Part shown: in pieces, positions 26,446-53,520 of the stretch
Layout: each line of letters begins with the position of its first letter
Position numbering within the stretch: the first letter of the stretch is position 1
Origin: a bacterium
GTDB taxonomy: Bacteria > Patescibacteriota > Minisyncoccia > Phycocordibacterales > Phycocordibacteraceae
Direction of reading: 5' to 3'
Length of the DNA: 64,000 bases
Assembly (NCBI GenBank): GCA_021811365.1
Contig: JAJZPB010000002.1
Coordinates: forward strand, 8,162 to 72,161
Position numbers and translations under genes: made by a program
The notes under the pieces: generated by a model
Seen by the model: only the letters and a program-made list of their open reading frames with translations
Told to the model about the DNA's origin: nothing
Databases searched by the model: none

Positions 26446-26515
26446 GGGCCTATAGTTTAGTGGTAAAACAGCGGTCTCCAAAACCGCCGTCCCAGGTTCG
26501 AGTCCTGGTGGGCCC
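26446..26515 (+). tRNA. tRNA-Trp (anticodon CCA)
   Basis: GGGCCTA acceptor, anticodon arm GCGGTCTCCAAAACCGC (near-identical to E. coli tRNA-Trp), T-arm CCAGGTTCGAGTCCTGG, 3' acceptor TGGGCCC-G. CCA is not encoded. Confidence 0.8.
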
Positions 26516-26625
26516 GCCCGAAGACTTTTGTATCGGACAGACCCGAAGGCCTTATTCTTAGCCGTTATTGCGCAGCACGTTTTTAGAAAAGCTAGATAGG
26601 GCGAAGGGACACCGAACTTTGGCCG
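26508..26625 (+). repeat. att-like repeat copy a (native tRNA-Trp 3' end plus ~110-nt downstream flank)
   Basis: Reads gcccgcccgaagacttttgtatcggacagacccgaaggcc...agaaaagctagatagggcgaaggg. It is the prototype of the copies listed below. Confidence 0.7.
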
Positions 26626-27018
26626 TTAGTGCAGTAGTGCGAGAAGGTACGGTCCGAAGATAAGAAGCCCTATTATGGCAGCTGCGATGGCGGCAATGAG
26701 CACTGCTCCGGCGGCAACATCCTTCGTATCACGCGCGAACGGATGGTACTCGGGCGATGTCAGGTCGATATCTATCTCTATCGCCGTATTAAACGCTTCT
26801 GCGGCGAGCACCAGTCCAGCGGCGAAGACGATGAGCATCCAATCGGCTTGCGTGATGCGGAAATAGAAGCCGAGTGCGATTACGACGAGAAGGATTGCAA
26901 TGTCTACCCATGCGTTGTGAGTCGTTTTGATGACAAGCCAGATCCCGCGCCCCGCATGAGTGAAGCTTTTCGCTCGCTTCACAATTGAAAATCGTTTCTC
27001 TTCTTGTTTGGTTGCCAT
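26626..27018 (-). CDS. Diacylglycerol kinase family protein (prokaryotic DgkA / undecaprenol kinase type)
   Basis: 130 aa with three TM helices and EAFNTAIEIDIDLTSPEYHPFARDTKDVAAGAVL, matching the DgkA signature. Confidence 0.85.
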   Translation of the reverse strand: MATKQEEKRFSIVKRAKSFTHAGRGIWLVIKTTHNAWVDIAILLVVIALGFYFRITQADWMLIVFAAGLVLAAEAFNTAIEIDIDLTSPEYHPFARDTKDVAAGAVLIAAIAAAIIGLLIFGPYLLALLH

Positions 27019-27024
27019 AGCAAT

Positions 27025-27666
27025 TTATCCGATTACGCGAATCGCTAATCTGCGGAACAGGAAGTATATAGCGGCGCAGAGCATCCCGAACAAGATCACC
27101 AATCCCAAAAGATATGCAGAAGCGAAAATGGATGCGATCAGTATTAGTAGGTGGAGCGGATCAGTAAAAATTACGTTGGAATTTATGTGCTCAAATCTGC
27201 CTAATACAATTCCAAATCCGACGACAAGGTTGAATACTATCAGCCACAGAATTTTCCTTTCTCGGAAGATTCGTACACGATCCGTGATGATCTCGAACGG
27301 ATAGAACGAAAAAATGAACGTCGGTACGGCGAACAGCTCAAGCAATATATATTGTGCGATGAGCAAGGTATGGCCGGATGCGGGCACCACGTATTCCCAT
27401 TGATACACGACGTGCCCCGCATCGGTGAATAAATATGCAGCGTTAGGCAAAAAGAGCAGCCATACTATTCCGAAAATAATCTGCGCGACTTTTGATCTGC
27501 TCCGCAGCGTCAACAAAAAGAGCCACGTGAATGCAACTGCGACAAGTGCGACGACGCAGTTGGAAACATCAACCCTGTTGATCAGAAAGAATATGACAAG
27601 GAGGAAAACAGCGGTAACGGTGTTCCGCCCAGTCTTGCCCGGTATAAATCTTTTCACAGCCTCCAT
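27025..27666 (-). CDS. Hypothetical polytopic membrane protein
   Basis: 213 aa, about six hydrophobic helices. Co-directional with the DgkA gene. Confidence 0.55.
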   Translation of the reverse strand: MEAVKRFIPGKTGRNTVTAVFLLVIFFLINRVDVSNCVVALVAVAFTWLFLLTLRSRSKVAQIIFGIVWLLFLPNAAYLFTDAGHVVYQWEYVVPASGHTLLIAQYILLELFAVPTFIFSFYPFEIITDRVRIFRERKILWLIVFNLVVGFGIVLGRFEHINSNVIFTDPLHLLILIASIFASAYLLGLVILFGMLCAAIYFLFRRLAIRVIG

Positions 27667-27674
27667 CGCATTGA

Positions 27675-27766
27675 TTTTACACCCGCCGAGATTCGAACTA
27701 ACGCGTAAAAATAAAAAGCTATATTCTAAGCCATAGGCGAAGGTACGACTCGAGAGCTTTCGTATC
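27675..27766 (+). repeat. Conserved ~90-nt element (copy 1) immediately upstream of att-like copy b
   Basis: gagattcgaac...aagctatattctaagccataggcgaaggtacgactcgagagctttcgtatcc. A second copy lies at 29385-29470. Confidence 0.55.
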
Positions 27767-27880
27767 CTGCCGCCCGAAGACTTTAGTATCGGACAGACCC
27801 GAGAGTCTTATTTGTAGCCATTATTACGCAGCACGTTTTTAGAAAAGCTAGATAGGGCGAAGGGATTCCGAACTTTTCCC
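27767..27880 (+). repeat. att-like repeat copy b
   Basis: Near-identical by eye to 26510-26620 over about 110 nt, including the ...cgcagcacgtttttagaaaagctagatagggcgaaggg tail. Confidence 0.7.
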
Positions 27881-27918
27881 TGAAATTCTAATCGATCGGC
27901 AATGCTACGATTATAGTC

Positions 27919-28593
27919 ATGAAGAACCCCGCGCTAAAGCTTTTCACGATGACGGCCATCTCTTTGGCCGTCATCTCACTTGCACTATTCCTTTCTGCGG
28001 GCACGCTCGCATACTGGCAAGCATGGACGTATCTCGCGGTGACACTACTCGCGAGCGTGCCGTACGTACGGATCATGCTTAAGGACCCGGTGCTTCGCGA
28101 AGGCAGAACGAAACTCGGTCCGCTCGCTGAGAAACGGCCCATCCAGAAAATCATCGTCGCGCTCTCAGGATTGCCGGGCATCGCTTTGTTCATTGTGCCC
28201 GGTCTCGACCATCGCTTCCACTGGTCAAGTGTGCCCTTCGGACTGATGCTGGCAGGAGATGTACTTATTTTCGTGAGCATGTGGATGGTGTACCGCGTTG
28301 TGAAAGAAAACTCCTTTGGTTCGGCAACGATCGAGGTGACCGAGAATCAGAAGGTCATTTCCACCGGCCCCTATGCCATCGTGCGCAATCCTATGTATGC
28401 GAGCGCACTCGTGTATTTCATCGGCATGTCCTTTGCGCTCGGCTCCTACTGGACTCTGGTTCCTGCTGCACTCACGACACTCGGTTTCGTATGGCGGCTC
28501 TTCGACGAAGAGAAATTTCTCTCCGCCAACCTCTCGGGCTACAAAGAATACTGCGCCAAAGTTCGTTGGCATCTCGTGCCGGGAATTTTTTAA
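27919..28593 (+). CDS. Isoprenylcysteine carboxyl methyltransferase (ICMT) / phospholipid methyltransferase family membrane protein
   Basis: Multi-TM protein with a C-terminal ISTGPYAIVRNPMYASALVYFIGMSFALGS...E motif, characteristic of the ICMT/PEMT superfamily. Confidence 0.8.
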   Translation: MKNPALKLFTMTAISLAVISLALFLSAGTLAYWQAWTYLAVTLLASVPYVRIMLKDPVLREGRTKLGPLAEKRPIQKIIVALSGLPGIALFIVPGLDHRFHWSSVPFGLMLAGDVLIFVSMWMVYRVVKENSFGSATIEVTENQKVISTGPYAIVRNPMYASALVYFIGMSFALGSYWTLVPAALTTLGFVWRLFDEEKFLSANLSGYKEYCAKVRWHLVPGIF

Positions 28594-29376
28594 TTGAGTG
28601 CAATGACCCTATTCTTGCCTGAATTCTCCATCCTTTTTCTCGCCTCGATTGTCGGCACGGCGGCCGTTGTTCCGTATAGCTTGCGGCTATTGAGATCGTC
28701 CGCGCAAAAGAAACCTTTGAAGATATCCGTTCCGATACTAACTCTTCTATCGGTGGTTCAGACTGCAGTTCTCTGTGGAATCGCGATTGCGGTAGGCTTG
28801 CTTGCATCTCACACAGTCGCACTTGGTGCTCCATACATTGAAGCAATACTCGCCAGCACACCCCTTCCTTCAGGTGTCGGTCTTGAGATCGCGGTTGCTT
28901 TCGGCGTTCTTGCTGGAGCAGTTCTTTTGATCGCAGATTTGTTCTTCCTGCCGTACTGGCCCCAACCGATTCTTGATGCGGCAAAAAGTACGACTATGCT
29001 GGAAAATTTCCTCGCAGCTTTCTATGGCGGTATCAACGAAGAGCTGTTGATGCGCCTGTTTGGGTTTTCTGTGCTCGTCTGGCTCCTGTCGTTTGTATGG
29101 CAGCCGAACCCGCTTATCTTTTGGAGCGTAAACGTCGTGATGGCGATTGTGTTCGGTATCGGCCATTTGCCTGCGCTGAAAGCACTGGTTGGTAACATAT
29201 CGGGGGTAATGCTTGCGCGAACACTGATCCTCAATGCTCCGGTCGGGCTTGTGTGCGGCTGGCTATTTTGGACATACGGCATAGAAGCTGCGATCATCGC
29301 GCACTTCTCGGCAGATATTGCGTATCACGTTTTTGGGACAGTAGTACTTCGGCGCAAGTTGGAGGTGGCAAATTAA
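28594..29376 (+). CDS. CPBP family intramembrane glutamic endopeptidase (CAAX protease / Abi domain)
   Basis: The three CPBP motifs are present: EELLMRLFG (EExxxR), FGIGHL (FxxxH), HFSADIAYH (HxxxN/D-like). Starts one nucleotide after the ICMT stop. Confidence 0.8.
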   Translation: MSAMTLFLPEFSILFLASIVGTAAVVPYSLRLLRSSAQKKPLKISVPILTLLSVVQTAVLCGIAIAVGLLASHTVALGAPYIEAILASTPLPSGVGLEIAVAFGVLAGAVLLIADLFFLPYWPQPILDAAKSTTMLENFLAAFYGGINEELLMRLFGFSVLVWLLSFVWQPNPLIFWSVNVVMAIVFGIGHLPALKALVGNISGVMLARTLILNAPVGLVCGWLFWTYGIEAAIIAHFSADIAYHVFGTVVLRRKLEVAN

Positions 29377-29384
29377 AACAGTCG

Positions 29385-29470
29385 AACCCCGACGAGATTC
29401 GAACCAAACACCGAAAATAAGGAAGCTATATTCTAAGCCATGGCGAAGGTACGACCCGAGAGCTTTCGTA
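29385..29470 (+). repeat. Conserved ~90-nt element (copy 2) immediately upstream of att-like copy c
   Basis: gagattcgaaccaaacaccgaaaataaggaagctatattctaagccatggcgaaggtacgacccgagagctttcgtatcc, closely matching 27675-27766. Confidence 0.55.
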
Positions 29471-29570
29471 TCCCTTCGCCTCCGCCAACACACTTTTTTA
29501 TCGGTGTCAACCCGAAGGCCCAAATCCACTACCCTCAGACTTTTTTATCGTGCAGACCCGGGAGCCTTAT
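29461..29570 (+). repeat. att-like repeat copy c (two tandem degenerate cores)
   Basis: cgccaacacacttttttatcggtgtcaacccgaaggcccaaatccactaccctcagacttttttatcgtgcagacccgggagcc. Closely matched by copy g at 51861-51960. Confidence 0.6.
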
Positions 29571-29636
29571 ACTGGAAAGCACCATGTTTTGTGCATGGTG
29601 CTTTCTGGGATAGCCGTGCTTCTCCAGGTACCTTTG

Positions 29637-29906
29637 TTACTTGCCCTTGTGCTGGATTTTGTCCGATTTCTCGCGGTTTTCCTCCCAATGCAGCGGCTGC
29701 AAATTTCGCGCATGGTCCGTTCCGCCATTGGCCACTGGATTTTTATGGTCGATTTCCCAACCATAATCACCACACGTGCCATATGAGCCAAAACGAATCG
29801 TGTTTCCGTATGTGTCTTTCCGCCACGTGTCAGGATCTTTGCCGCGTATCTCTCGGCCCTTCCCCCAGACCTCCTCGACTTGTTTTCTCGAAGCCATATG
29901 CCTCAA
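29637..29906 (-). CDS. HNH endonuclease
   Basis: GYGWEIDHKNPVANGGTDHARNLQPLHWEEN fits the HNH motif (His-metal finger, paired Asn). Confidence 0.75.
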   Translation of the reverse strand: MRHMASRKQVEEVWGKGREIRGKDPDTWRKDTYGNTIRFGSYGTCGDYGWEIDHKNPVANGGTDHARNLQPLHWEENREKSDKIQHKGK

Positions 29907-30029
29907 TGTCTTAATGCTGATAAACCTGATTCATCGACCACAAGGGGGACCCTTGACCGCCAGGTGGTATCTATAATATACTTCCCGCTATGGGAGTCAA
30001 CATGGAGGTACTAAGAGCGAACCACGGCT

Positions 30030-30317
30030 ATGCAATTAGTTGGAAAAGACACCTTGGATACCTTCAAAAATGAGCATCCCGATGCGCGCTCACAGGTCGA
30101 AGCGTGGGAAGCCGAAGTGGAGAACGCTAGTTGGGGAACACCGCACGACCTCAAACGGCGTTATCCGAAGGCAAGCCTTCCCGGTAAACAACAAGCCATA
30201 TTCGACATTTGCTGGAACAGGTATCGGTTGTGGGTCAAGGTCGCATACAACACCGGTATCGTGATAGTGAAGGCGATCGGTACACACCAAGAGTACGAAG
30301 AGTGGCCTATTGAATAG
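30030..30317 (+). CDS. higB: Type II toxin-antitoxin system HigB-family toxin (RelE-like mRNA interferase)
   Basis: 95 aa ending ...LWVKVAYNTGIVIVKAIGTHQEYEEWPIE, like the HigB C-terminus (THKEYD). The antitoxin gene starts 3 nt downstream. Confidence 0.75.
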   Translation: MQLVGKDTLDTFKNEHPDARSQVEAWEAEVENASWGTPHDLKRRYPKASLPGKQQAIFDICWNRYRLWVKVAYNTGIVIVKAIGTHQEYEEWPIE

Positions 30318-30320
30318 CAT

Positions 30321-31532
30321 ATGGACGATATAAAAATTATAAAAACCAAAGAAGACTACGAACGCGCGCTTCGACTCGTCGAGACGCTTGTCGATCGCGA
30401 CCCGGAATCCGGTTCCGCAGACGCAGATCGACTCACACTTCTCACGGCGCTCGTCAAGGAATACGAATCGAAGAGCTTTCCGGAGCATCTCCCCGACCCG
30501 ATTGAGGCAATCAAGTTCCGCATGGAGCAGGAAGATCTTAAGCCTGTGGATCTTGTGCCATATATCGGCAGTGCGGGAAGAGTCTCTGAAGTACTTTCTG
30601 GGAAACGTCAGCTCACGCTTGACATGGTGAGGGCGCTTTCTGCCGGTCTTGGCATTCCAGCGAAAGTTCTCATACAAAAACCGTCAAGAGATTTCGAATC
30701 ACAGAATTGGGATACTGCGCTCGTTAAGACGATGGAGCGGCGCGGCTACTTCGGCAAGAAGACAATGAAAGATCACACCAAATCCGAACTGATAAGCGGA
30801 TTCTTCGCAGCATTCGGTCACATGCAACCAGCCGTTTTATATCGGAAGACAAGCTTTCGGTCCGCGCCACGTACCGACAATAATGCCCTGCTCGCTTGGG
30901 GGAAGCGTGTGTTGCAGAAATCAGAGAAAATAAAAGTGCCAGCGAAATTCAAAGACGGCACGGTAACGCTCTCATTTATGTGCGCGGTACTGAATCTGAG
31001 TACCAGAGATAAAGGACCTGTGCTTGCACGAGATTACCTTAAAAAACACGGCATTAAATTAGTCATTGAGCCGCATCTCCCAAAAACACACCTCGATGGT
31101 GCCACGTTCTTCGCATTCAAGGCGAATCCCGTTATAGGACTCACTATCCGTCACGACCGACCTGATAACTTTTGGTTCACATTGATGCACGAGCTTGCAC
31201 ATGTTGCCCTCCATTACAACAACGGTGTTGAATCCTTCTATGACGAAAAATTGCAGGATAAGGACGGTATAGACATTGATCCCAAAGAGCAGGAGGCAGA
31301 CAAACTTGCAGAGGAATCTATTCTTCCGGAAAGCAAATGGGAGACGAGCGCGGCGAAGTCAACGCCGAACCAGTTCTCTACCGAAGACTTAGCTAACGAG
31401 CTCGGCGTACAGACCGCAGTCATAGCGGGAATGATTCGGTTCAAGCATCAGAACTTCTTCTACCTGAATAAAATCGTGAACGACGAGACTCTATCCGTTA
31501 AGAAGTATTTTGCCGAGGAATTTACCGACTAA
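30321..31532 (+). CDS. HigA-like HTH (XRE) antitoxin fused to ImmA/IrrE-family zinc metallopeptidase domain (COG2856-like)
   Basis: The N-terminal ~100 aa resemble HigA antitoxins (MDDIKIIKTKEDYERALRLVETL...). The C-terminal domain carries an HEXXH zinc site (LMHELAHVALH) in an ImmA/IrrE-type context. Confidence 0.8.
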   Translation: MDDIKIIKTKEDYERALRLVETLVDRDPESGSADADRLTLLTALVKEYESKSFPEHLPDPIEAIKFRMEQEDLKPVDLVPYIGSAGRVSEVLSGKRQLTLDMVRALSAGLGIPAKVLIQKPSRDFESQNWDTALVKTMERRGYFGKKTMKDHTKSELISGFFAAFGHMQPAVLYRKTSFRSAPRTDNNALLAWGKRVLQKSEKIKVPAKFKDGTVTLSFMCAVLNLSTRDKGPVLARDYLKKHGIKLVIEPHLPKTHLDGATFFAFKANPVIGLTIRHDRPDNFWFTLMHELAHVALHYNNGVESFYDEKLQDKDGIDIDPKEQEADKLAEESILPESKWETSAAKSTPNQFSTEDLANELGVQTAVIAGMIRFKHQNFFYLNKIVNDETLSVKKYFAEEFTD

Positions 31533-31535
31533 ACT

Positions 31536-32660
31536 ATGGCTACCATTAAACCCTACATCCCAATATTGCGATGGCGACCAGCTGAAATAAAGGCGCTGGA
31601 GAAGCTTTTCCCGCAAGACCGAGGGAATATCACGCCGTTAATAGAATTTGTGATGCCCGCTCCGTCAATCACTCGTAAAGGCGACAAAATCATCATTACA
31701 AAGACGCGTAAGGAGAAATTCTTGGAAGAGCTCCCGGATGTTGCCAAGAATTTGTTGAAGTCATGCGGTCAGATGCACATGCTTATCGACGTCCAGCAGC
31801 TCGACGCAGACATCAGGGCATCTTCGCTTGAGCAAATTCTCGCATCGTCGAAGGATTTGGATCTGTTTTCAATTCCTGTAACGTACATTATTCCTATGAT
31901 GGGCACGAGCGCCGATGCGGCTACCCGTGCTGCTGCCGTAAAATACGCCAAATCGAGCGGACATGGACTCTGCATACGTATCGATAAGTCACATCTCAAA
32001 GAGCCCAACCTGTCGTCTCAAATCGCTACCTTCGTCAAGGAGAACCAGCTCGATATAGGGAAAATAGATCTACTCATCGACCTGCGCGTCATTGATCAGG
32101 ATACGGCCGTCGCTGATGTTGTGAAGAAACTGAAGATCCTCCCGGACTTGCAAAAGTGGCGTTCATTCATCGTATCGGGAGGTGTGTTTCCTAAAGATTT
32201 GTCCGACTTTCTCCCGGGCGATGTACACCAGCTAGAGCGGTTTGATTGGAAACTGTGGAATAAGCTTCAAAAGACAGACTTACTTCGTAAGCCGTTGTTC
32301 TCCGACTACACCATTCAACATCCGTTCTATGAGTATGTAGCTGCCATTGGCAGTGCGAGCGTGCGATACACGGATGATGGTGAATGGTGGATTTTCCGGG
32401 GGACGAAGCCGGGTCATATCAACAGCAAGACTGGTAAAAAAGGGCCCGGGCGAGAGCAATACATCGGCCATGCACGCACGCTCATCAATCGAGTTTTCTA
32501 CAAAAAGTCTGGTTTTAGTTTTGGTGATGCAGAAATCACTCGAATTGCAGCAGCTGAAAATCAAAAGCCGGGGAGCCCGGCGACCTGGCTTACCATTGGT
32601 ATCAACCACCACATCACGCTAGCTGCACGTCAGACCGCCAGTCTTGCCGGGAAGATTTAA
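31536..32660 (+). CDS. Beta-protein-like (sce7725-like) protein, partner of the ImmA/HTH gene
   Basis: 374 aa beginning MATIKPYIPILRWRPAEIKALEKL. From recollection this matches the N-terminus of the 'beta protein'/sce7725 family that pairs with COG2856 ImmA genes. Family assignment is from memory, not a search. Confidence 0.5.
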   Translation: MATIKPYIPILRWRPAEIKALEKLFPQDRGNITPLIEFVMPAPSITRKGDKIIITKTRKEKFLEELPDVAKNLLKSCGQMHMLIDVQQLDADIRASSLEQILASSKDLDLFSIPVTYIIPMMGTSADAATRAAAVKYAKSSGHGLCIRIDKSHLKEPNLSSQIATFVKENQLDIGKIDLLIDLRVIDQDTAVADVVKKLKILPDLQKWRSFIVSGGVFPKDLSDFLPGDVHQLERFDWKLWNKLQKTDLLRKPLFSDYTIQHPFYEYVAAIGSASVRYTDDGEWWIFRGTKPGHINSKTGKKGPGREQYIGHARTLINRVFYKKSGFSFGDAEITRIAAAENQKPGSPATWLTIGINHHITLAARQTASLAGKI

Positions 32661-33228
32661 GAACATCCCACACGTACTCTTTAAGAGAGTCGATCTTCTG
32701 CGATTCAGCGAGCCGTTGATACACAGCCTCTCGTGGTTTTGTTCGAACACCATCGGCTTTGCCCAAATCCTCAAGCCTCTCGAGAGCCTCGTGCCTCCAT
32801 AGCAGTCGTGCAATCGAAATACTATCCTGCTCAAGATTATTTTGTGGACTCCTGATGTGGTTAAAAAAGACCGTACCATTCTCGTCCACGCGGGCCGTCT
32901 CGATACCCCACCAATCGGGCACCATTCTAAACGCATCCACGAAATGTTTGCTGCCCACTACAAGGGTTACCTGGTCGAATATGCTGTTGTAGGCATGCAT
33001 TTGCTCTGGCAAGCGGGTAAGCGTATCGCGATCACTCTTGATCTCGAAACCCCGCAGAGAACCGTTCACGACGGCGACGTCGATCCTAGCAGCTCCATGC
33101 CAGACTCCTAACTCAGGTATGACGCGGTAATTCGGATAGTCAACGACGAGCCGATTGACCAACGCTTCCCGAATGATTGTGTCGTTTGTTTGATTCATTT
33201 CTTGAAGATCAATACGACACGGGTCCAT
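32614..33228 (-). CDS. sce7726-like protein with PD-(D/E)xK nuclease-like motif
   Basis: VIPELGVWHGAARIDVAVVNGSLRGFEIKSDRD fits a D...E-x-K restriction-endonuclease-fold core. Convergent with the beta-like gene and overlapping it by about 47 nt. Confidence 0.5.
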   Translation of the reverse strand: MDPCRIDLQEMNQTNDTIIREALVNRLVVDYPNYRVIPELGVWHGAARIDVAVVNGSLRGFEIKSDRDTLTRLPEQMHAYNSIFDQVTLVVGSKHFVDAFRMVPDWWGIETARVDENGTVFFNHIRSPQNNLEQDSISIARLLWRHEALERLEDLGKADGVRTKPREAVYQRLAESQKIDSLKEYVWDVLKSSRQDWRSDVQLA

Positions 33229-33291
33229 GGATATATTTTACACGTAACATGCGCTGGCCGGATAGTCGCTCGCTGTGGATGCGACGCGCAT

Positions 33292-45786: not shown

Positions 45787-46230
45787 TCAGCTGCCCACAT
45801 CTCGCGAGCTCTTAGGCTCGCGTTCGCGCTTCCGCCTCTGCAGTTCGAACGTTTCTTTGCTGACGAGAATTCCATCGTCCTGGTCCTCAATATCGACAAG
45901 CATAGGACTCTCCCGCCGCCTCTGACGCGTGTCCGAATACTCAGATGCCTTTGGTGCGTAGCGCGGGGAGTTGTTCGATAGGAAGTACTTTATTGCTCCC
46001 ATGTCCCCCGCTTTGACTTTGTTCACGAGCTGCATTTCGCCGACGTCGCAGAGGTCTTCCCGGGCGAACTCCATAGTCTCTTCGACGAGACGGCCGAATT
46101 CCGGATTGCGCTTCATCCAGCGGTATATGGTTGAGCGGTCAATGCCGTGCTTACGCGCAACATGCGCGATGAACGGGGTCCTCGCAAGGTCTTCGAGCAC
46201 CTTCTTCCGTATGTTCTTGCTATACGCCAT
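45787..46230 (-). CDS. HTH-domain protein (terminase-small-subunit-like / transposase-HTH-like)
   Basis: IAHVARKHGIDRSTIYRWMKRNPEF is a helix-turn-helix. The C-terminus is acidic/basic. Sits immediately downstream of the ParB-methylase. Confidence 0.5.
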   Translation of the reverse strand: MAYSKNIRKKVLEDLARTPFIAHVARKHGIDRSTIYRWMKRNPEFGRLVEETMEFAREDLCDVGEMQLVNKVKAGDMGAIKYFLSNNSPRYAPKASEYSDTRQRRRESPMLVDIEDQDDGILVSKETFELQRRKREREPKSSRDVGS

Positions 46231-47563: not shown

Positions 47564-47767
47564 TACGGTTGGGTCTTTAAAGGGGCGCGTTGTAAAAGGA
47601 AGCCCCTCTATCCACACTACGGCCGGTTTTGCGAAATTTGAGAAATTTGACAGGCGTCTAGTTTTAATTTACTGTGCGAACAGCTTCTCGCATGCCAACG
47701 TTCCCAAATAGGGCTGAAACAAGCCGCCTTTGGGAGGCGTATAGGCAAATAGAGTATCCCGTTCCTT

Positions 47768-47950
47768 TTGGAGGCACCCATGCTCGCACGCACCGTCGAC
47801 CACCCCTACATGCTCGCCATGTTCAAGGACCTCGAACTCACCGAAACCGAGATCCGAAACCTCACGACCCAGCGGACTCCGGAACAGGACAGGGCGCATA
47901 CCCCAAACCCCGTTCCCGCACTAGCCCTTCCCGGTCCGGCGGCAAGCTGA
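47768..47950 (+). CDS. Possible small conserved protein (paralogue at 52443-52631)
   Basis: MFKDLELTETEIRNLTT versus MFADLELTQTEIRAYTT are conserved at the amino-acid level between the two duplicated segments, while the nucleotides have diverged. Confidence 0.35.
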   Translation: MEAPMLARTVDHPYMLAMFKDLELTETEIRNLTTQRTPEQDRAHTPNPVPALALPGPAAS

Positions 47951-48018
47951 CCAAGCCAGCAGCCTCTGACTCATCTCACGCCACCCCAGACGCTCGACGT
48001 CCTTGGGGTGGTTTTTCT

Positions 48019-48405
48019 TTAGCGCACCCAGCGCAGCATCGGCGCTTTGGCGCCTTTCGGGAAGTCTTTTTGAAGACGCGGCGCAAATAGAGCGAGGTCG
48101 GTCCTGGAGGACTTCCTCAACTTGGCTATCTCCGCGTCGGTCTCGACGGGCAGGTAGGTGCTGTACTGCGGGTCATCTCCGTCCACCCAGTCTATTTCCT
48201 CGTAGAACTCAAAGAAGTAGCGCTGATCGCACTCCCGGCATCGGAGAAGGTACCGCCAGAAGTGGCTATCCTTGTAGTATGTTTCGAGCAATTCGAACGG
48301 TCCTGAGATCGGTGCGTTCACGAGCTCCGGATACTTCCAGAGCGCGCATTGCGTGGGAGCCTTTAATCGGTTATACGCCGCACTCTCTTTTCTTCTGTTG
48401 GGCAT
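48019..48405 (-). CDS. Hypothetical protein (paralogue of 52702-53103)
   Basis: 128 aa reading ...LWKYPELVNAPISGPFELLETY...RCRECDQRYFFEFYEEIDWVDGDDPQYSTYLPVETDAEIAKL. The second copy is conserved. Confidence 0.5.
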   Translation of the reverse strand: MPNRRKESAAYNRLKAPTQCALWKYPELVNAPISGPFELLETYYKDSHFWRYLLRCRECDQRYFFEFYEEIDWVDGDDPQYSTYLPVETDAEIAKLRKSSRTDLALFAPRLQKDFPKGAKAPMLRWVR

Positions 48406-48420
48406 AGTGGTGATGTGCGT

Positions 48421-48745
48421 TATCGGCTAATCTCCTCGCCGATTCCGCAGACGACTACTATGCAAAAGCGGCTCGGAGTTTTGATCCAGCCCATTGGCTG
48501 AATGAAATCTCCCAACCGCTTTGCGATCAGTCGCGCGCGCCATCTGGCTCCCCGCAGATTTCCCAGTTCGCCTACCCTCATCAGGAGGCGCGCGCGGTCC
48601 GCATTCGGTGCGCGGACTGCACTATTTCCTCTCAAGGAACAACTTAATTGTACCAGAAATGAAGGTAGTAACGGAGTGTCGCATTTGTTGCATTTCCAAA
48701 GACAGACCTTAGACCCGAAGGGTTCCGAATCCACCATTAGAGGAA
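48421..48745. repeat. Non-coding repeat R, copy 1 (copies 2 and 3 at 53105-53445 and 63866-64000)
   Basis: The shared core reads ...gcgatcagtcgcgcgcgccatctggctccccgcagatttcccagttcgcctaccct... An indel between copies 1 and 2 breaks any frame, so the repeat is non-coding. Confidence 0.65.
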
Positions 48746-48781
48746 CCAGGAATAGCCTTATGTTGCCTCAGCGACAAAGTT

Positions 48782-48860
48782 TGAATCCCGAGTGGCCCGC
48801 CCGAAGACTTTTGTATCGGACAGACCCGAGAGTCTTGTTTTGAGCCATTTTACGGTACGC
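48782..48860 (+). repeat. att-like repeat copy d (truncated)
   Basis: tttgaatcccgagtggcccgcccgaagacttttgtatcggacagacccgagagtcttgttttgagcc. It includes a degenerate T-loop/acceptor tRNA 3' fragment. Confidence 0.65.
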
Positions 48861-48951
48861 ATATGAAAAAATCTAGACAACCCCCAACGGGACTCGAGGT
48901 GCTGTTCCATGCCACAAAAAGAATAGTGGCGACCGCAGGGTTCGGTTGCCA

Positions 48952-49518
48952 CTATTTTGGCGTGACAAGGATTGCCTTGCCAGCACCGTAGTCTTTTTTC
49001 ATGTCTGCCAATGTTGCGATTTCAACGTCGCCGCCTCCACCATAGACAGACACATACATTCCGAAACCAACGTATATGGCGGCATGGTGGAAAAATAAGT
49101 CTGAGTCCAGTAAAAATACTATGTTGCCAGGCGTACCTTCCTCAGCTTCACACCAGGACGTATTCCACCACTGGCCCCACTCAAAACCCCAGTGGGGATG
49201 TTGGTCTGATGGAATACCAGCAACAAGACAGGCGAATGCGTAGCAGTCAAAAGTCATGTTCACCTTGGCGTGATGGCAATGAAGAAATTCAACGAGGGCT
49301 TTCTTTGTCTCAGGCGTGAGTACAAGCTTCGTTGAGCAAAACGCCAGATACCAGGGCCGTATAAGAATCTCCACGTCATCAACAGCACGATAGTCCTCGC
49401 GCTCATGGAAGCAGCGTAGCTCGCCTTCTTCTTTAATCATGAGCGGGAAGACTCTCATCCTCCTCCCATCAGCGGTCATGACAGTCTGTTTTCTTGGAGT
49501 GACGAAGATCGTAAGCAC
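48952..49518 (-). CDS. Hypothetical protein with NlpC/P60-like (papain-fold) Cys-His signature
   Basis: TFDCYAFACLVAG (Cys) followed by FHHAAIYVGFGMYV (His), in the order seen in NlpC/P60/LRAT-like hydrolases. No signal peptide. Confidence 0.45.
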   Translation of the reverse strand: MLTIFVTPRKQTVMTADGRRMRVFPLMIKEEGELRCFHEREDYRAVDDVEILIRPWYLAFCSTKLVLTPETKKALVEFLHCHHAKVNMTFDCYAFACLVAGIPSDQHPHWGFEWGQWWNTSWCEAEEGTPGNIVFLLDSDLFFHHAAIYVGFGMYVSVYGGGGDVEIATLADMKKDYGAGKAILVTPK

Positions 49519-49779
49519 GGGGCACCTCCATATGCCAATCTCTTTTCAACAGATACCACAATACTGTAGTCATGTCTATGGCTACGAGTGCCAACGTATT
49601 TGACTCACTTCTTGTCGAATCTCGTCCCACAGGGCCCGCCAAGAAAAGCGCCGAAGGACGCTTTTTGCATGACGGGACCAAGTGAGGCGCGGGACGTCTC
49701 ACGTCCAGGACTCGAAAACCTTGCGAGCATATTTTTGGAGCACTGCGCACTAAAATATCCGCAAGGTGTACTGAACCTG

Positions 49780-49860
49780 TACGGTTCGAGAAAGGTAATC
49801 CTGGTCCTGGTGGGCCCGCCCGTAGTATTATTTTATTTATAGGACAGACCCGAACACTTA
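49780..49860 (+). repeat. att-like repeat copy e (tRNA-Trp 3'-end remnant with internal insertion)
   Basis: ggttcgagaaaggtaatcctggtcctggtgggcccgcccgtagtattattttatttataggacagacccgaacac. Confidence 0.55.
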
Positions 49861-50532
49861 ATGAGCTTCAATAATCCCTTCAAATCTGGCCCGGAGAAAA
49901 AACCAGCTGCGACGGTTGAAGTCGAGCTGGAATATTCCGCTTTCGTTCCACCCGTTTTCCAGGCCGACCCTGTCGGATACTTTGAACGCGAAGGGCAGAA
50001 TATTAAGACTGGAAAAATAAAAACTGACGAAGCTGGCAGGGTTCGCGAAGATACGACGGCAGTAAAGGATTTACCGATTTGGAGAGACGACCATGGCGTA
50101 GAACTTCAGACAGTCGGGCGGCGCGTGGATATTACCAAAGGTGCAGTGGGAGAATCTGGAGATCCTTTTTATGAGTATAAAATCCTTCAACGACTTCATG
50201 GAATGGGATTGCCCGCTGCGCGCCCGATAGCTAAGGCAGAACAAGGAGGCGTGCATATTATCGTCATGGAGCGTATTCCCGGCGTCCGATGGTCAGAGAA
50301 AGAAAGCCTCCAGTTGCGCGAACGTGGGTATTCGAACGAAGACATCACCGAACTCCAAACACAGGCTGAGCAAAAGATGGATCAATTGCGTCAGCAGTTT
50401 GGAGCTGCCGGTGTAGTGCGAGGATGGAAATTGAAGGATATGGTATTTCAGATTGATATTGAAAGTAAGAAGGTTCTTGCTGTTGTACCGACAGACTGGG
50501 AGCGAACTCGAATTGAAGAAAAGGCCGCCTGA
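49861..50532 (+). CDS. Hypothetical protein (possible kinase-like fold)
   Basis: 223 aa, coding-like. ...ILQRLHGMGLPAARPIA...HIIVMERIPG loosely resembles aminoglycoside/choline kinase-like N-lobes. Weak. Confidence 0.45.
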   Translation: MSFNNPFKSGPEKKPAATVEVELEYSAFVPPVFQADPVGYFEREGQNIKTGKIKTDEAGRVREDTTAVKDLPIWRDDHGVELQTVGRRVDITKGAVGESGDPFYEYKILQRLHGMGLPAARPIAKAEQGGVHIIVMERIPGVRWSEKESLQLRERGYSNEDITELQTQAEQKMDQLRQQFGAAGVVRGWKLKDMVFQIDIESKKVLAVVPTDWERTRIEEKAA

Positions 50533-50597
50533 CCCGGAACCTTTGCTGCGACGCGAGGGAATCGGCTAGAACACCCTTATGGCGTGATACTAAAAGT

Positions 50598-50715
50598 CTG
50601 AATCTCGGGTAGCCCGCCAAACATTTTTGTCGGACAAACCTGAGAGCCTTGTTTTATGGCGTTATTATGCAACATGTTTTCAAAAGGCTAGATGAGAGCA
50701 GAGCGATTAGGACTC
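50598..50715 (+). repeat. att-like repeat copy f (diverged full-length copy)
   Basis: ctgaatctcgggtagcccgccaaacatttttgtcggacaaacctgagagccttgttttatggcgttattatgcaacatgttttcaaaaggctagatgagagc aligns along the full length of copy a. Confidence 0.6.
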
Positions 50716-50834
50716 CCCTACTAAAGCACCCCTCGCGTTAATGTGTGCCTTTCGGATGGTTTTGAGGTGTGAAAAAGATCGCCAAGCTTGTGGCTTGGCG
50801 ATCATCGGTGACTTGCGGCAACGTTAGTGCTGGT

Positions 50835-51386
50835 TCACTTCTTCGAATCTTCCCCTTCACACAATCTCGACATGTCTTGCGCTAATGCGCCACTCGCAAT
50901 TCTGCCATGACGACCTAAGTAATCGCCAAAACGGTAGAGTGCACTGGCCGCTGTGTGTCGCGCAATAACGCGCAATGCTTGTTGCTGCCCCGGACGCAGA
51001 TCGCAGTATCGTCGGCGTACTTCGCAACTTAGCTGAACAGTTGCCTTGCTGACTTTGTGCGCCGGTGTCATTTCCAGTGGCAGTGACGTGCTGGTGAGCC
51101 AACTCGTCATAACACCAATGAGAGGACTTAGAAAAGCTACGAGAAAGTATATGCCGCTAAGAATGAGCTTATAGGTGAAGACGTTCGTGTCGTCGAGATT
51201 TGTGTTGGTGAGCACGAGTGCATCCACCAGCTCGTAAATCCCGAGCCCGAACCAGACGAGTGCCCAAGTAAAGGCAACTGCAAAGGCGCGACGAACTCGT
51301 ATGAGTCCGAAAAACGCACCTAAGACAAGCACTATGACCGGAACGGTCACTAATATATCGAACATGACGACCTCCCCTTTGTTCAC
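50835..51386 (-). CDS. Hypothetical membrane protein
   Basis: 183 aa, 3-4 TM helices in the N-terminal half, charged C-terminus. Confidence 0.5.
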   Translation of the reverse strand: MNKGEVVMFDILVTVPVIVLVLGAFFGLIRVRRAFAVAFTWALVWFGLGIYELVDALVLTNTNLDDTNVFTYKLILSGIYFLVAFLSPLIGVMTSWLTSTSLPLEMTPAHKVSKATVQLSCEVRRRYCDLRPGQQQALRVIARHTAASALYRFGDYLGRHGRIASGALAQDMSRLCEGEDSKK

Positions 51387-51498
51387 TCTAGATGAGAGAG
51401 TGTCACGGAGTTAAGCATAAGTCAATAGGACTATTGACGCCACATACAACTTATGATACGGTTTCTATGGTTCTTCGCTCGTCAGGAAGGGGAAACAC

Positions 51499-51735
51499 AT
51501 GCCTGGTTCGCACTTTGTTCGTGCCGTTCATAGGGTCCGCTACCCGGTCGCGGCTGTATGCGGCTTGCTTGCGCTCGTGTTCGCGAGTGCAATACTGCAA
51601 GTTGCGGGGTGGATACCGCGTATTACTGTGCGGACAGATTTCATTCCGGGGCCGGGGTACGACCTCGGCATGACTCTGGCTACCCTGTTCTTCATCTTTT
51701 TGGCTTGGTTCGTCTTCAGGGTTCCGAAACACTAA
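51499..51735 (+). CDS. Possible small membrane protein (78 aa)
   Basis: Two hydrophobic helices. Weak. Confidence 0.3.
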   Translation: MPGSHFVRAVHRVRYPVAAVCGLLALVFASAILQVAGWIPRITVRTDFIPGPGYDLGMTLATLFFIFLAWFVFRVPKH

Positions 51736-51860
51736 TGGCCGATTGTCCGGTGGAAGCATACTTCCACCGGACAATTTCTATTTCCATCACCGTGATGGAC
51801 CAGTCCCAGGGCAAAGATTTTCTGCATTAGGTAAGTATTCGATTTAGAATAATCTCTCGT

Positions 51861-51960
51861 TTGACCTCGTCCCACAAGGCCCGCCACACACTTTTTTATA
51901 GGTGTCAACCCGAAGGCCCAAATCCCCTACCCTCGGACTTTTTTTGTGTAGACCCAAAGG
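51861..51960 (+). repeat. att-like repeat copy g (paralogue of copy c, two degenerate cores)
   Basis: cgccacacacttttttataggtgtcaacccgaaggcccaaatcccctaccctcggactttttttgtgtagacccaaagg. Confidence 0.6.
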
Positions 51961-52028
51961 ATTCAATTGCTTTTTGCAATCCTTAAAAAAAATAGATTCG
52001 ACGCACCTATAACTTACTTCCTTACACG

Positions 52029-52247
52029 TCAGCAAACAACTCCGCCGCCAATAATGATGCCTTCGCGCCCGGGAGCGTGGTTCACAACGAGCGGGTCGAC
52101 GACGCCGTGTTTCGTACTGCTCTCTACAATCGCCCTTTTGGTTGAGTCATCGACGACTCGCGGATTGTACGGCGCGTGCGTGAGTGAGTCAGTCGGAACG
52201 TATTCGATACGGAGTTTTGTTTGTGCGGTGGTGGCCATGGTGAGCGT
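52029..52247 (-). pseudogene. Truncated N-terminal fragment of a ParB-like/methyltransferase gene (paralogue of 46220-47563)
   Basis: MATTAQTKLRIEYVPTDSLTHAPYNPRVVDDSTKRAIVESSTKHGVVDPLVVNHAPGREGIIIGG, then an immediate stop. The nucleotide sequence matches about 47380-47565. Confidence 0.7.
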
Positions 52248-52442
52248 AAATAGCAAGGTGTGATAATGGAATGTCCTCTCTTTATGGGAGTGGTGAATTT
52301 GCAAAATTAGAACCATTTGACACCGTCCGTGTTGTAATTTACAATACATACAGCTTCTCGCACGACACGCTTCCCAAAGGGGCTGAAACAAGCCATATTC
52401 TGGCAGCGTATACATAAACGGAGACCAAAACGTTCCTTTTCC

Positions 52443-52631
52443 ATGGAGGCAGCATTGCCCAACACAGCGCCCAATGTCGACCCGTTCATCGCTGAGATGT
52501 TCGCGGACCTCGAACTCACCCAAACAGAGATCCGGGCCTACACAACTCACCCGTCCCGGGAGGGGCAGAACCAAGCGCGGAAGCCTAGCCGTGACTATGA
52601 GACTCCTCCCCGTTCGGAGGCGGCATGCTGA
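52443..52631 (+). CDS. Possible small conserved protein (paralogue of 47768-47950)
   Basis: See 47768-47950. Confidence 0.35.
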   Translation: MEAALPNTAPNVDPFIAEMFADLELTQTEIRAYTTHPSREGQNQARKPSRDYETPPRSEAAC

Positions 52632-52701
52632 CGAAATCAGCTTGTTCTTCCATCACCTGTGCCACCCCAAAGCGCTTAACGGCGTTGGGGGTGGCTTTTC
52701 T

Positions 52702-53103
52702 TTATTGCACCCAGCGCAGCGTCGGCTCCTTGGCGCCCTTTGGGAAGTCCTTCTGGAGGCGTGGCGTGAATTGAAGGAGTTCAACCTGCGTGGCGTTTTG
52801 CAACTTTGCTATTTCCGCGTCGGTCTCGACGGGCAGGTAGGTGCTGTACTGCGGGTCCTCGCCGTCGACCCAGTCGATCTCTTCGTAGAACTCAAAGAAG
52901 TAGCGCTGCCCGCACTCGCGACATCGGAGAAGGTACCGCCAGAGGTGGCTATCCTTGCTATATGTTTCGAGCAATTCGAACGGTCCTGAGATCGGTGCGT
53001 TCACGAGCTCCGGATACTTCCAGAGCACACACTGGGTGGGGGTGCGCAGTTGATTATATGCTGAGCACGTTTTCTTTTTGTTAGTCATAGCGATGATGTA
53101 CAA
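52702..53103 (-). CDS. Hypothetical protein (paralogue of 48019-48405)
   Basis: 133 aa with the same LWKYPELVNAPISGPFELLETY...RCRECGQRYFFEFYEEIDWVDGEDPQYSTYLPVETDAEIAKL core. Confidence 0.5.
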   Translation of the reverse strand: MYIIAMTNKKKTCSAYNQLRTPTQCVLWKYPELVNAPISGPFELLETYSKDSHLWRYLLRCRECGQRYFFEFYEEIDWVDGEDPQYSTYLPVETDAEIAKLQNATQVELLQFTPRLQKDFPKGAKEPTLRWVQ

Positions 53104-53104
53104 T

Positions 53105-53445
53105 ATCGGCTAATCTCCTCGCCGGTTCCGCAGACGACTTCAATGCAAAAAGCGGCTCGGAGTTTTGATCCAGCCCATTGGCTGAATGAAATCTCCCAAC
53201 CGCTTTGCGATCAGTCGTGCGTACCATCTGGCTCCCCGCAGATTTCCCAGTTCACCTACCCTTTCGGGAGGTACGCACGGTCCGCAGTAAGTGCGCGAAC
53301 TGCACGATTTCCTTTCAAGGAACATCGTAAGTATACCAGAAAGGTGGTCGTAAACAGAGTATTGGATGTGTTGCATTCTCCACAAGCGGCGCCGGAGAGT
53401 AAACCCGAAGGGCTTTGCGTCGCTACCGAAGAAAGTCAAGAATAG
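53105..53445. repeat. Non-coding repeat R, copy 2
   Basis: Aligns with 48421-48745 for most of its length (copy 1 diverges in the last ~100 nt) and with 63866-64000 over the shared core. Confidence 0.65.
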
Positions 53446-53464
53446 TCCTGTACTGCCCTGACGA

Positions 53465-53520
53465 TATAGTTTGAATCCCGAGTTTGCCGTCCGAAGACTT
53501 TCCTATCTTTGTAACCTGAG
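53465..53520 (+). repeat. att-like repeat copy h
   Basis: tagtttgaatcccgagtttgccgtccgaagactttcctatctttgtaacctgag. Confidence 0.55.

Follow-up and report, generated by a model that had tools for sequence, protein, structure and literature searches.

The repeats between 26.5 and 53.5 kb of the window (the whole stretch of 64,000 nucleotides analysed here) are att junctions left by the stacking of mobile elements and of small gene units behind a single tRNA-Trp. We consider it probable, at roughly 70%, that the region is a composite island, built by repeated site-specific insertion behind this tRNA by one family of small integrative elements and its derivatives, with a large serine recombinase (LSR) as integrase. 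The bacterium that carries it probably belongs to the Patescibacteria (CPR). Its best description is a serial LSR-mediated accretion at a tRNA, akin to the SCC composite and tycheposon islands. The hotspot of serial integration at tRNA-Trp envisaged in the first-pass annotation is supported.

Junctions, units and strain variation

The tRNA-Trp gene was identified by ARAGORN and by the Rfam tRNA model (69.7 bits). With 26446-26640 as query, BLAST and nhmmer recover plus-strand copies at 27770, 29481/29532, 48779, 49804, 50596-50702 and 53469; repeat finding adds one at 51886, with 95% identity to 29488-29546. The eight copies listed in the first-pass annotation are all present on the plus strand, and a further junction, c4b (49.60-49.64 kb), is the ninth. 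These are more than chance matches: a 23-nt flank motif has four matches at up to three mismatches, against none expected from shuffles. BLAST, nhmmer and the repeat search found no copies in the window outside 26.5-53.5 kb, and an HMM of the P' arm found no significant copy elsewhere in it; an exact 26-mer of the tRNA end occurs once, even with three mismatches permitted. The array is not an assembly artefact, since an independent ENA assembly agrees at 99.99-100% identity across 28.8-64 kb.

The copies are heterogeneous: c4, c6 and c8 bear a diverged T-arm-like arm (GTTTGAATCCCGAG..GCCCGCC), c5 has a host-type T-arm with an insertion, and in c2, c3 and c7 the shared part is limited to the CCGCC core, alongside arms of other types. 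The flank of about 100 nt said to be shared is indeed common to c1 and c2 (about 90% over 102-107 nt), c4 (77-82% over 79 nt) and c6 (73% over 99 nt); it is, however, an element-borne P' arm and not chromosomal flank.

The anatomy of arms and cores (Table 1) bears out the earlier view of the copies as att-type junctions that divide the DNA into units. Junction c1 is an attL, combining the intact tRNA-Trp with the element arm P'; at c2, c3, c4, c6 and c7, all hybrid junctions, one unit meets the next; c4b and c8 are attR, the latter of the second array, where it ends the island. There are two adjacent arrays: one at the tRNA and one at the relic tRNA 3' fragment c5, past the ancestral trailer (Dx) that c4b adjoins. 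Junction c5 acts as the attL-like start of the second. The P'1 arm of c2 is 90% identical to that of c1; the P2 arm of c3 is 84% identical to that of c2 over 94 nt; the P3 arm of c7 is 74% identical to that of c4b, and its P'a+b arms are 95% identical to those of c3. A 36-nt block of c1 (26511-26546) recurs identically in c4.

Table 1. Features of the tRNA-Trp island, in window coordinates
Feature	Position	Strand	Description
tRNA-Trp(cca)	26446-26518	+	intact target gene, left half of attL (c1)
P'1 arm of attL (c1)	26519-26620	+	conserved motif GACTTTTGTATCGGACAGACCCGA
Unit A	26519-27774		1.26 kb, GC 0.48; DgkA 26626-27018 (-), DUF1361 27025-27666 (-)
Junction c2	27682-27876	+	P2 arm 27682-27774, CCGCCCG core, P'1 arm 27775-27876
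Unit B	27775-29480		1.7 kb; PEMT/ICMT methyltransferase 27919-28593 (+), CPBP-like membrane protein 28603-29376 (+)
Junction c3	29388-29577	+	P2 arm, then tandem P'a + P'b arms
Unit C	29481-48803		19.3 kb; sole unit with family core genes
C: HigB	30030-30317		
C: M78 protein	30321-31532		
C: Beta_protein	31536-32660		
C: sce7726/P4-cII-like protein	32614-33228	-	
C: Type III mod	33292-35772	-	
C: Type III res	35785-38778	-	
C: LSR	38785-40107	-	Resolvase + Recombinase + Zn ribbon; YARKSTE catalytic-serine motif
C: P-type ATPase	40974-43472	-	
C: HTH/small-terminase-like (TerS-like) protein	45787-46230	-	family core
C: ParB_N-N6/N4 DNA methylase	46220-47617	-	family core
C: 128-aa Cys-containing protein	48019-48405	-	terminal gene
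Structured RNA candidate	48467-48648	-	directly 5' of 128-aa gene
Junction c4	48739-48877	+	P1 arm with T-arm mimic AATAGCCTTATG...AAAGTTTGAATCCCGAGTGGCCCGCC, then P'1 arm
Unit D	48802-49641		0.84 kb; single 188-aa hypothetical gene 48952-49518 (-)
c4b	49599-49641	+	P3 arm + GGCCCGCC core; true attR of array 1
Dx	49642-49782	+	ancestral tRNA-Trp trailer; terminator-like hairpin, inverted T-arm fragment
c5	49783-49856	+	relic host-type tRNA-Trp 3' end GGTTCGAG..CCTGGTGGGCCCGCCCG, then degenerate P' arm
Unit E	49826-50617		0.8 kb; single 223-aa hypothetical gene 49861-50532 (+)
Junction c6	50570-50706	+	short P1-type arm AAGTCTGAATCTCGGGTAGCCCGCC, then P'1-type arm
Unit F	50618-51886		1.27 kb; hypothetical genes 50835-51386 (-), 51451-51774 (-)
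Junction c7	51844-51950	+	P3 arm, then P'a+b arms
Unit G	51887-53490		1.6 kb; truncated ParB-methylase 52029-52574 (-), 133-aa protein 52702-53103 (-)
G: second RNA copy	53151-53331	-	
c8	53429-53507	+	P1 arm + degenerate core TTTGCCGTCCG, then chromosomal flank

The gene content (DgkA, DUF1361, PEMT/ICMT, CPBP-like, Type III R-M, HigB) agrees with the first-pass annotation, and the LSR of unit C is, as had been stated, the single recognisable recombinase found. It has three of three LSR domains and the catalytic motif. Unit A carries no recombinase; together with B, D, E and F it belongs to the recombinase-less units, which are 0.8-1.8 kb long with one or two cargo genes each. Unit G matches 47369-48793 at 75% identity over 1.46 kb and is what deletion has left of a C-like element. 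The 128-aa protein of unit C belongs to a widespread family without annotation; the neighbouring RNA candidate is cargo or a leader, not family core.

The tRNA-Trp locus varies between relatives. A strain with 99% nucleotide identity (L004) is without exactly 26547-48778, namely units A, B and C (22.2 kb): its junction consists of the left side of c1, the identical 36-nt block and the right side of c4, so that the breakpoint falls inside the block common to both and c4 is the right breakpoint of the polymorphism. Units D-G are identical in the two strains. A further relative (L001) has, at the same tRNA, another island of the same family that is 3.7 kb long and differs in content; the arm type after its genuine tRNA-Trp is that of P'a/P'b in c3, the flank after its island is homologous to Dx, and its attR with chromosomal flank to the c4b-Dx-c5 segment. 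In other samples, short-read contigs end at 26546 and within the repeats. The sole polymorphism seen is the A+B+C block and not single units; independent movement of any mini-unit was not seen in the compared sequences. An age gradient is apparent: the polymorphic block is tRNA-proximal, while the most distal unit, G with c8, is the most degenerate.

A tRNA-associated clade of large serine recombinases

The clade to which the LSR belongs is large and tRNA-associated; it was absent from the first-pass annotation and is, relative to the array, the more novel part. Large serine recombinases have long been described as not targeting tRNA genes. The family core of unit C (ParB-methylase, TerS-like HTH protein and LSR) is widespread: loci L020 and L021, at the 3' ends of a tRNA-Gln and a tRNA-Ser respectively, encode the ParB-methylase (70-73% amino acid identity), the HTH protein and the LSR (58-69%). 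In IMG/VR, 67 relatives of the LSR were found at 41-68% identity. For 22 of these the fetched flank includes a tRNA, which in every case lies downstream of the LSR gene and convergent with it, often 115-160 nt from the LSR stop codon, though provirus boundaries in IMG/VR may be biased towards tRNAs. In L020 and L021 the tRNA is likewise just downstream and convergent, and two further relatives terminate within a tRNA 3' end followed by P'. At ten distant LSR loci (23-24% identity) no tRNA was found.

Among the loci searched (L020-L099), the ParB-methylase occurs in 51 and the HTH protein in 45; loci with both usually have the order ParB-methylase, HTH, LSR, with the tRNA, when present, beyond the LSR. 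In nine sequences, which between them have Ser, Asp, Gln and Trp tRNAs, the P' motif comes at a fixed spacing after the tRNA end. A P-arm HMM derived solely from the copies in the window matches L021 at the expected far end of its element (E=9.5e-5), and in L025 a Trp-type P-core-P' site lies intact 2.7 kb beyond an LSR gene. The junctions of L020 and L021 share 4-6 nt and no long direct repeats, which fits the expectation for an LSR. Most fetched relatives are single elements, not arrays. By these associations the LSR is the most likely enzyme inserting the elements, and hence the proposed integrase of the family.

Proposed accretion and rival readings

In the proposed mechanism the LSR would recombine the attP of an element with the 3' (acceptor-strand) end of the tRNA gene, attP comprising a P arm that ends in the T-arm mimic, a short core, and a P' arm with TTnTATCGG-N4-GACCCGA. 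The tRNA would remain intact and gain P' as a new trailer (attL), and the P arm and core would land at the far side of the element (attR). Later arrivals would re-insert at the tRNA and displace older units outward, leaving hybrid P-core-P' junctions between them. A-B-C-D constitute the first array, between the tRNA and the ancestral trailer, and E-F-G the second, at the relic fragment about 180 nt further on. C is the sole full element, G is a decayed copy, and A, B, D, E and F are conserved arms around cargo, either mobilised in trans or stripped-down remnants.

Some observations sit uneasily with this scheme. Canonical LSRs recombine only attP with attB; standard LSR behaviour does not include re-insertion at a tRNA that P' already follows (an attL-type site). 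The dyad symmetry expected of P and P' is not significant against shuffles. The LSR gene lies 12 kb from the tRNA beside the Type III R-M pair, and the block with mod, res and LSR (33170-40426) forms a separate contig in sample ERR3200796; given this contig and these neighbours, a nested R-M module could be where the LSR belongs. This block also has a GC content above its neighbours, and the 36-nt identity of c1 and c4 exceeds what an LSR needs. Tandem arrays with displaced tRNA 3' fragments are moreover a hallmark of tyrosine integrases (PMC4383910; PMC7192596), so that one may picture an array made by such an enzyme, encoded elsewhere or lost, with the LSR as unrelated cargo mobilising only the R-M module. 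We regard this as unlikely: a screen of the island proteins and of selected flanking proteins gave no tyrosine recombinase domain, nor was a tyrosine recombinase found in the gene tables of L020 and L021, whereas the LSR accompanies the ParB-methylase and HTH protein in most LSR-relative loci searched, and has a convergent tRNA beside it at every IMG/VR locus with a tRNA, and the P' motif is conserved after the tRNA end.

It is distinctly unlikely that the island is a strict integron-like or SCC-like capture platform, with A, B, D, E and F as cassettes moved singly by one recombinase. Units A and B do have homologous ends (90% over 102 nt, 84% over 94 nt) with unrelated and closely packed interiors, D and F share arm types, the mini-units have a GC content of 0.48-0.52, below the 0.55 of the host, and ccr-less units are known in SCC arrays (10.64898/2026.03.31.715619). 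However, polymorphism was seen only for the whole A+B+C block, the mini-unit arm sequences tried were not found in IMG/VR, relatives mostly occur singly, gene orientation is mixed, and neither IntI nor attC was found in the array. The deletion of A+B+C could alternatively reflect homologous recombination across the 36-nt identity. Extending this to the entire region, as a fixed, non-mobile set of local duplications in which RecA-mediated deletion at the perfect repeat yields ordinary strain differences, would agree with the invariance of D-G; it is nonetheless highly improbable, as ends matching the arms occur on elements located independently at other tRNAs of other genomes, the GC of the units is foreign and their cargo unrelated, and L001 has different content at the same tRNA. 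We therefore retain serial accretion by the LSR family as the preferred reading.

Comparison with known systems

The first-pass annotation had termed the array integron-like, and an array of short one- or two-gene units with recombination sites between them is a genuine likeness. The window array is nevertheless not an integron: an IntI-type tyrosine recombinase, attI and attC were not found in it, unit genes run in both directions with no common orientation or promoter, and the sites are two-armed att junctions from a tRNA end, not attC. The CIMEs of ICESt1/ICESt3-type accretion-mobilisation are reportedly att-flanked units without recombination or transfer genes, arranged in tandem beside the element that encodes the cognate recombinase, co-excision being possible in principle; these systems are said to have tyrosine integrases and conjugation modules and to occur in Firmicutes, unlike the window array.

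The tDNA islands and tandem IGE arrays described with Islander and TIGER have ends marked by an intact tDNA and displaced direct-orientation fragments, and form tandem arrays via re-use of the regenerated site; tyrosine integrases define them, whereas here none was found and an LSR clade tracks the tRNA genes (PMC4383910; PMC7192596). The statement that such an arrangement is unfamiliar in small genomes was too strong, given the tycheposon precedent (10.1101/2020.12.28.424599) and the SCC/ECC arrays (10.64898/2026.03.31.715619; PMC6222049). According to Hackl et al., the tycheposons and cryptic elements of the streamlined Prochlorococcus genome resemble the window array in forming islands that adjoin tRNA genes, with elements side by side in tandem, only partial tRNA copies between them, degenerate remnants with extra partial tRNAs, and cargo and defence genes; an LSR is in the minority (27/937 elements), 910/937 using tyrosine recombinases (10.1101/2020.12.28.424599). 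Many have replication modules, whereas the proteins of the island yielded no primase or helicase; the core gene set is another, and conserved-arm mini-units are not described in the text consulted.

The SCC/SCCmec/ECC islands (CcrAB/CcrC at the 3' end of rlmH) differ in their target, rlmH instead of a tRNA gene, and in their CcrA/B pair, as against a single LSR here, which has CcrB as its best NCBIfam match but scores 100.9 bits against a Ccr family cut-off of 900. The window array further differs in its ParB-methylase and TerS-like HTH core genes, its Patescibacteria-like host, and att arms of about 50 nt per side with a T-arm mimic. In both, no mobility gene other than an LSR is conserved, and insertion takes place at the 3' end of a housekeeping gene that is itself conserved and left intact. 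Also common to both are tandem or composite arrays, which in SCC/ECC are LSR-driven, bounded by repeated att sites and including recombinase-less units and remnants, and highly variable cargo (10.64898/2026.03.31.715619; PMC6222049).

Repeat junctions and units of the island

The DNA downstream of tRNA-Trp is a real, strain-variable, layered island, bounded by an intact tDNA and by displaced tDNA 3' fragments in direct orientation, the arrangement by which Islander recognises an island. BLAST and nhmmer searches with the 3' half of the tRNA plus 120 nt of flank recovered the plus-strand copies marked in the table below, and a repeat search of the window added c7, which is 95% identical to 29488-29546. 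The first-pass annotation had counted at least eight copies of the tRNA end and called them degenerate: the count holds, with c4b added as a ninth junction, and so does the degeneracy, the exact 26-mer of the tRNA end occurring only once in the window. A 23-nt motif of the flank has four matches at ≤3 mismatches vs none in shuffles, and neither a motif scan nor a P' HMM found copies of it outside the array region in the 64-kb window. Since an independent ENA assembly is 99.99-100% identical over 28.8-64 kb, the array is not an assembly artefact.

Every copy consists of two arms around a short core (..GCCCGCC..), a left arm termed P and a right arm termed P'. The right arm is either P'1, of ~100 nt, or P'a+b, the type that also adjoins the genuine tRNA-Trp 3' end in L001, a relative at the same locus; among the left arms, P1 carries a mimic of the T-arm (AAAGTTTGAATCCCGAG). 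The ~100 nt beyond each copy had been described as flank: the sequence is indeed shared, but evidence from the family of the large serine recombinase (LSR) identifies it as the P' arm of the element rather than chromosomal flank. Dyad symmetry between P and P' does not exceed that of shuffles, and we claim no half-site geometry.

Coordinates of junctions, units and other features of the region, with the arms on either side of each junction core (window positions unless another locus is named)
Feature	Position	Strand	Left arm	Right arm
tRNA-Trp(cca)	26446-26518	+		
Junction c1	at tRNA-Trp		real tRNA	P'1
Junction c2	27770	+	P2	P'1
Junction c3	29481/29532	+	P2	P'a+b
Junction c4	48779	+	P1	P'1
Junction c4b	49599-49641		P3	
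Junction c5	49804	+	host-type relic	
Junction c6	50596	+	P1	P'1
Junction c7	51886		P3	P'a+b
Junction c8	53469	+	P1	
Unit A	26519-27774			
Unit B	27775-29480			
Unit C	29481-48803			
Unit D	48802-49641			
Unit E	49826-50617			
Unit F	50618-51886			
Unit G	51887-53490			
LSR (unit C)	38785-40107	-		
Structured RNA, ~180 nt	48467-48648	-		
Structured RNA, ~180 nt	53151-53331	-		
Structured RNA, truncated	63862-63998	-		
Structured RNA, L001	3696-3871			
Structured RNA, L015	2063-2242			
Structured RNA, L016	699-880			
Structured RNA, L017	6290-6472			
128-133-aa Cys-containing protein	48019-48405	-		
128-133-aa Cys-containing protein	52702-53103	-		

The junctions separate units that share ends. 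Units A and B both run from P'1 to P2, and these ends are 90% and 84% identical over ~100 nt around unrelated interiors; D and F run from P'1 to P3, and C and G from P'a+b to P1. Unit G repeats the terminal 1.46 kb of C (75% identity) and has a truncated ParB-methylase, and is on these grounds a decayed C-like element. The mini-units have a GC content of 0.48-0.52 vs 0.55 for the flanking chromosome. Unit C does not qualify as a prophage: no capsid, portal, large terminase or tail gene was found in it, the TerS-like HTH protein being all that turned up.

Between c4b and c5 (49596-49830), the sequence is homologous to the attR of L001 together with the chromosomal flank of that relative. Both contain the relic CCTGGTGGGCCCGC, a T-arm fragment in inverted orientation and a hairpin that shows compensatory changes. 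From this comparison of sequences we infer two adjacent arrays rather than one: the first, A-B-C-D, would lie between tRNA-Trp and an ancestral trailer, and the second, E-F-G, would have formed at the relic c5.

Variation between relatives and the recombinase family

That segment content varies between relatives had been proposed as a check, and it does vary, but movement of single units was not seen. The relative L004 (a JGI contig, ~99% nucleotide identity) matches the window over 20432-26546 and 48779-63017 and lacks 26547-48778, while units D-G are present in both strains. Its junction passes from the left side of c1 through 36 nt that c1 and c4 share to the right side of c4, and because of this the gain or loss involved A, B and C together and took place exactly at the repeats. 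Homologous deletion across the 36-nt identity could account for their absence; this length of identity between attL and attR of the window would follow from the target having already had a P' arm. L001, which retains upstream synteny and 76-88% amino acid identity in most flanking genes, bears at the same locus an island of 3.7 kb that differs from this one but belongs to the same family. In two further samples, the short-read contigs are broken at 26546 and within the c2 repeat. We considered unit B as independently mobile and rejected this, the extra contig simply breaking inside c2; no mini-unit showed independent movement. An exact-protein look-up had no record of DgkA or of a 319-aa flank protein.

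The LSR had been singled out as the only recognisable recombinase, and this is borne out by Pfam, PHROGs and NCBIfam, which find no tyrosine recombinase or Phage_integrase among the island proteins and selected flanking proteins screened. It has the Resolvase (PF00239), Recombinase (PF07508) and Zn-ribbon (PF13408) domains of Pfam, its catalytic serine motif YARKSTE is conserved in the LSR of the related element L020, and its structural relatives in the PDB are SPbeta SprA/YokA and the A118 integrase. Its gene lies 12 kb from tRNA-Trp and adjoins a Type III R-M pair. In sample ERR3200796, the segment with mod, res and the LSR (33170-40426) forms a contig of its own (7257 nt, 100% identical), and in the window the GC content of this segment is above that of its neighbours; on these two grounds the segment could be a module that is nested or variable.

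Two related elements found via the ParB-methylase, L020 and L021, encode the HTH protein and an LSR (58-69% identity), together with R-M cargo that varies, and each adjoins a tRNA 3' end (tRNA-Gln and tRNA-Ser, respectively); these single-copy elements are without long direct repeats, with 4-6 nt in common at the junctions. Scanning IMG/VR with an LSR alignment yielded 67 relatives at 41-68% identity. A tRNA lies within the fetched flank in 22 of these, always downstream of the LSR gene and convergent with it (22/22), often 115-160 nt from its stop codon, and belongs to the Ser, Asp, Glu, Gln, Trp, Arg or Asn species; two more contigs terminate within a tRNA 3' end followed by P'. Distant LSR loci had no tRNA (0/10). 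Across the LSR-relative loci L020-L099, the ParB-methylase occurs in 51 and the HTH protein in 45, usually in constant order relative to the LSR. Taken together, these tRNA and P' associations and the lack of a tyrosine recombinase among the proteins screened make the LSR the best candidate for the integrase of the element family.

The arms themselves recur beyond the window. The pattern TTnTATCGG-N3-5-GACC stands at fixed spacing after the tRNA end in nine sequences with four tRNA species, and an HMM of the P arm, trained on window copies alone, matches L021 at the expected far end of the element (E=9.5e-5). The P' HMM recovered only its own seed sequences from the LSR loci, so that conservation of the P' motif beyond close relatives rests on inspection; exact-pattern IMG/VR scans with the P' motif, the P1 core, the P2 arm and a degenerate P' pattern gave 0 matches each. 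Most fetched relatives are single elements, with extra tRNA-end copies within the fetched flanks in one locus only (L026); six IMG/VR contigs have two LSR copies each. The 28-kb viral contig L025 (IMGVR_UViG_3300000970_000154) has two LSR genes and ends at a tRNA-Ser. At 7280-7322, 2.7 kb beyond an LSR gene, it has an intact Trp-type, attP-like P-core-P' site, whose core CCCGAGTGGCCCGC is that of c4; this site may represent either a tandem junction or a free attP.

Comparison with known systems and significance

The window falls outside the definitions of the integron, the Islander-type island and SCC alike. It had been called integron-like, a label that we abandon: there is no IntI-type tyrosine recombinase in the proteins screened, and whereas integron cassettes end in attC and are co-oriented, the genes here lie on both strands and the junctions are not attC but P-core-P' sites, with homologues at the ends of elements that adjoin other tRNAs. 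An Islander-type island requires a tyrosine-family integrase, and none was found in the window proteins screened. A tycheposon is defined by a site-specific integrase plus a replication module (primase, helicase or polymerase) at a tRNA-proximal island; the window has an LSR and a tRNA-proximal position, and no replication gene was recognised among the island proteins screened. In Prochlorococcus islands, elements lie side by side with partial tRNAs between them, together with remnants, and 27 of 937 elements have an LSR (10.1101/2020.12.28.424599). SCC/ECC elements are inserted by an LSR at a conserved gene, at its 3' end, and some units of their composite arrays have no recombinase (10.64898/2026.03.31.715619; PMC6222049). 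Likewise, the window has a composite array with repeated att sites as bounds and recombinase-less units; however, the SCC/ECC target is the 3' end of rlmH rather than tRNA-Trp, and SCC/ECC uses a Ccr-family recombinase, while the best NCBIfam match of the window LSR, to CcrB, scores 100.9 bits against a cut-off of 900. By analogy, the SCC/ECC cassette chromosome is the closest functional counterpart, and the window would work most like an SCC moved to a tRNA.

Stacking at the tRNA requires an attL-type target; to our knowledge, canonical LSRs do not use such targets. We tentatively propose, with a probability of about 0.3, that a large undescribed LSR clade recognises what tRNA genes have in common, the T-arm and the acceptor end, easily switches tRNA species and tolerates a tRNA that already bears P'. 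In Patescibacteria this would have led to a tRNA-anchored 'cassette chromosome', in which one enzyme captures, stacks and excises, as nested blocks, both full elements and recombinase-less mini-cassettes with ~100-nt conserved arms and one or two cargo genes. As an array, the locus is in principle nothing unusual; what merits follow-up is the LSR clade that tracks tRNA genes, together with the mini-units and their conserved arms.

The small serine recombinase of phiRSM integrates into tRNA-Ser. It provides a precedent (cited in PMC7192596), as do the 27 Prochlorococcus elements that have an LSR. A large LSR survey classes targets by protein-coding gene only and never mentions tRNA (10.1101/2021.11.05.467528). 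If a sizeable LSR clade targets tRNA 3' ends, such islands are currently missed: as far as we know, only tyrosine integrases are considered to target tRNA genes, and Islander and similar island finders rest on that rule. The clade would also offer a natural series of related enzymes with differing short targets and a common T-arm-like half-site, which would help to explain how LSRs choose their sites and perhaps to re-programme that choice. Patescibacteria have small genomes and few known mobile elements; the locus offers a concrete route of gene flux in them, with defence systems, membrane-lipid enzymes, a P-type ATPase and strain-level variation.

A structured RNA, a small protein family and neighbouring features

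The structured RNA listed in the table has 45 pairs predicted by RNAalifold, 15 with compensatory double changes, and a GNRA loop (CCCGAAAGGG); A.C mismatches on the plus sense indicate that the minus strand is the functional one. It has no match in Rfam. In the window it lies directly 5' of the 128-aa gene, and in two unrelated metagenome contigs 5' of HD_4 (RelA/SpoT-type hydrolase) genes; it has the look of a small RNA or of a cis-regulatory leader. A role in the att machinery was rejected, as its model R1 finds the RNA in none of the 70 LSR loci searched (L020-L089) and it occurs next to HD-domain genes elsewhere. The 128-133-aa family has no Pfam, PHROG or NCBIfam match, and the 128-aa protein found 0 loci in IMG/VR; 504 database matches at ~55-65% identity extend to distant phyla (Omnitrophica, Bradyrhizobium), a conservation that is unusually high for an unannotated small protein.

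Directly past the island, 53.8-63.9 kb encodes an ABC ATPase, an FtsX permease, an AprE-like barrel protein, a nitroreductase-like protein, ThiF, an acyltransferase, two GDSL lipases, a phosphopantetheinyl transferase, an acyl-carrier protein and a FeeM-type N-acyl amino acid synthase. In a reduced genome such a set, which resembles a small cluster for a lipid or natural product, is unexpected. Just upstream of tRNA-Trp, a minus-strand gene (25408-26367) with a weak T4SS-pilin match has 45-56% amino acid identity between relatives vs 76-88% for most neighbouring genes. Directly after tRNA-Leu(caa), two extra degenerate copies of its 3' end (gttcggctagcgcctctcccggcaca) stand in tandem at 22275-22360, where they resemble att scars, empty or stacked, at another tRNA.
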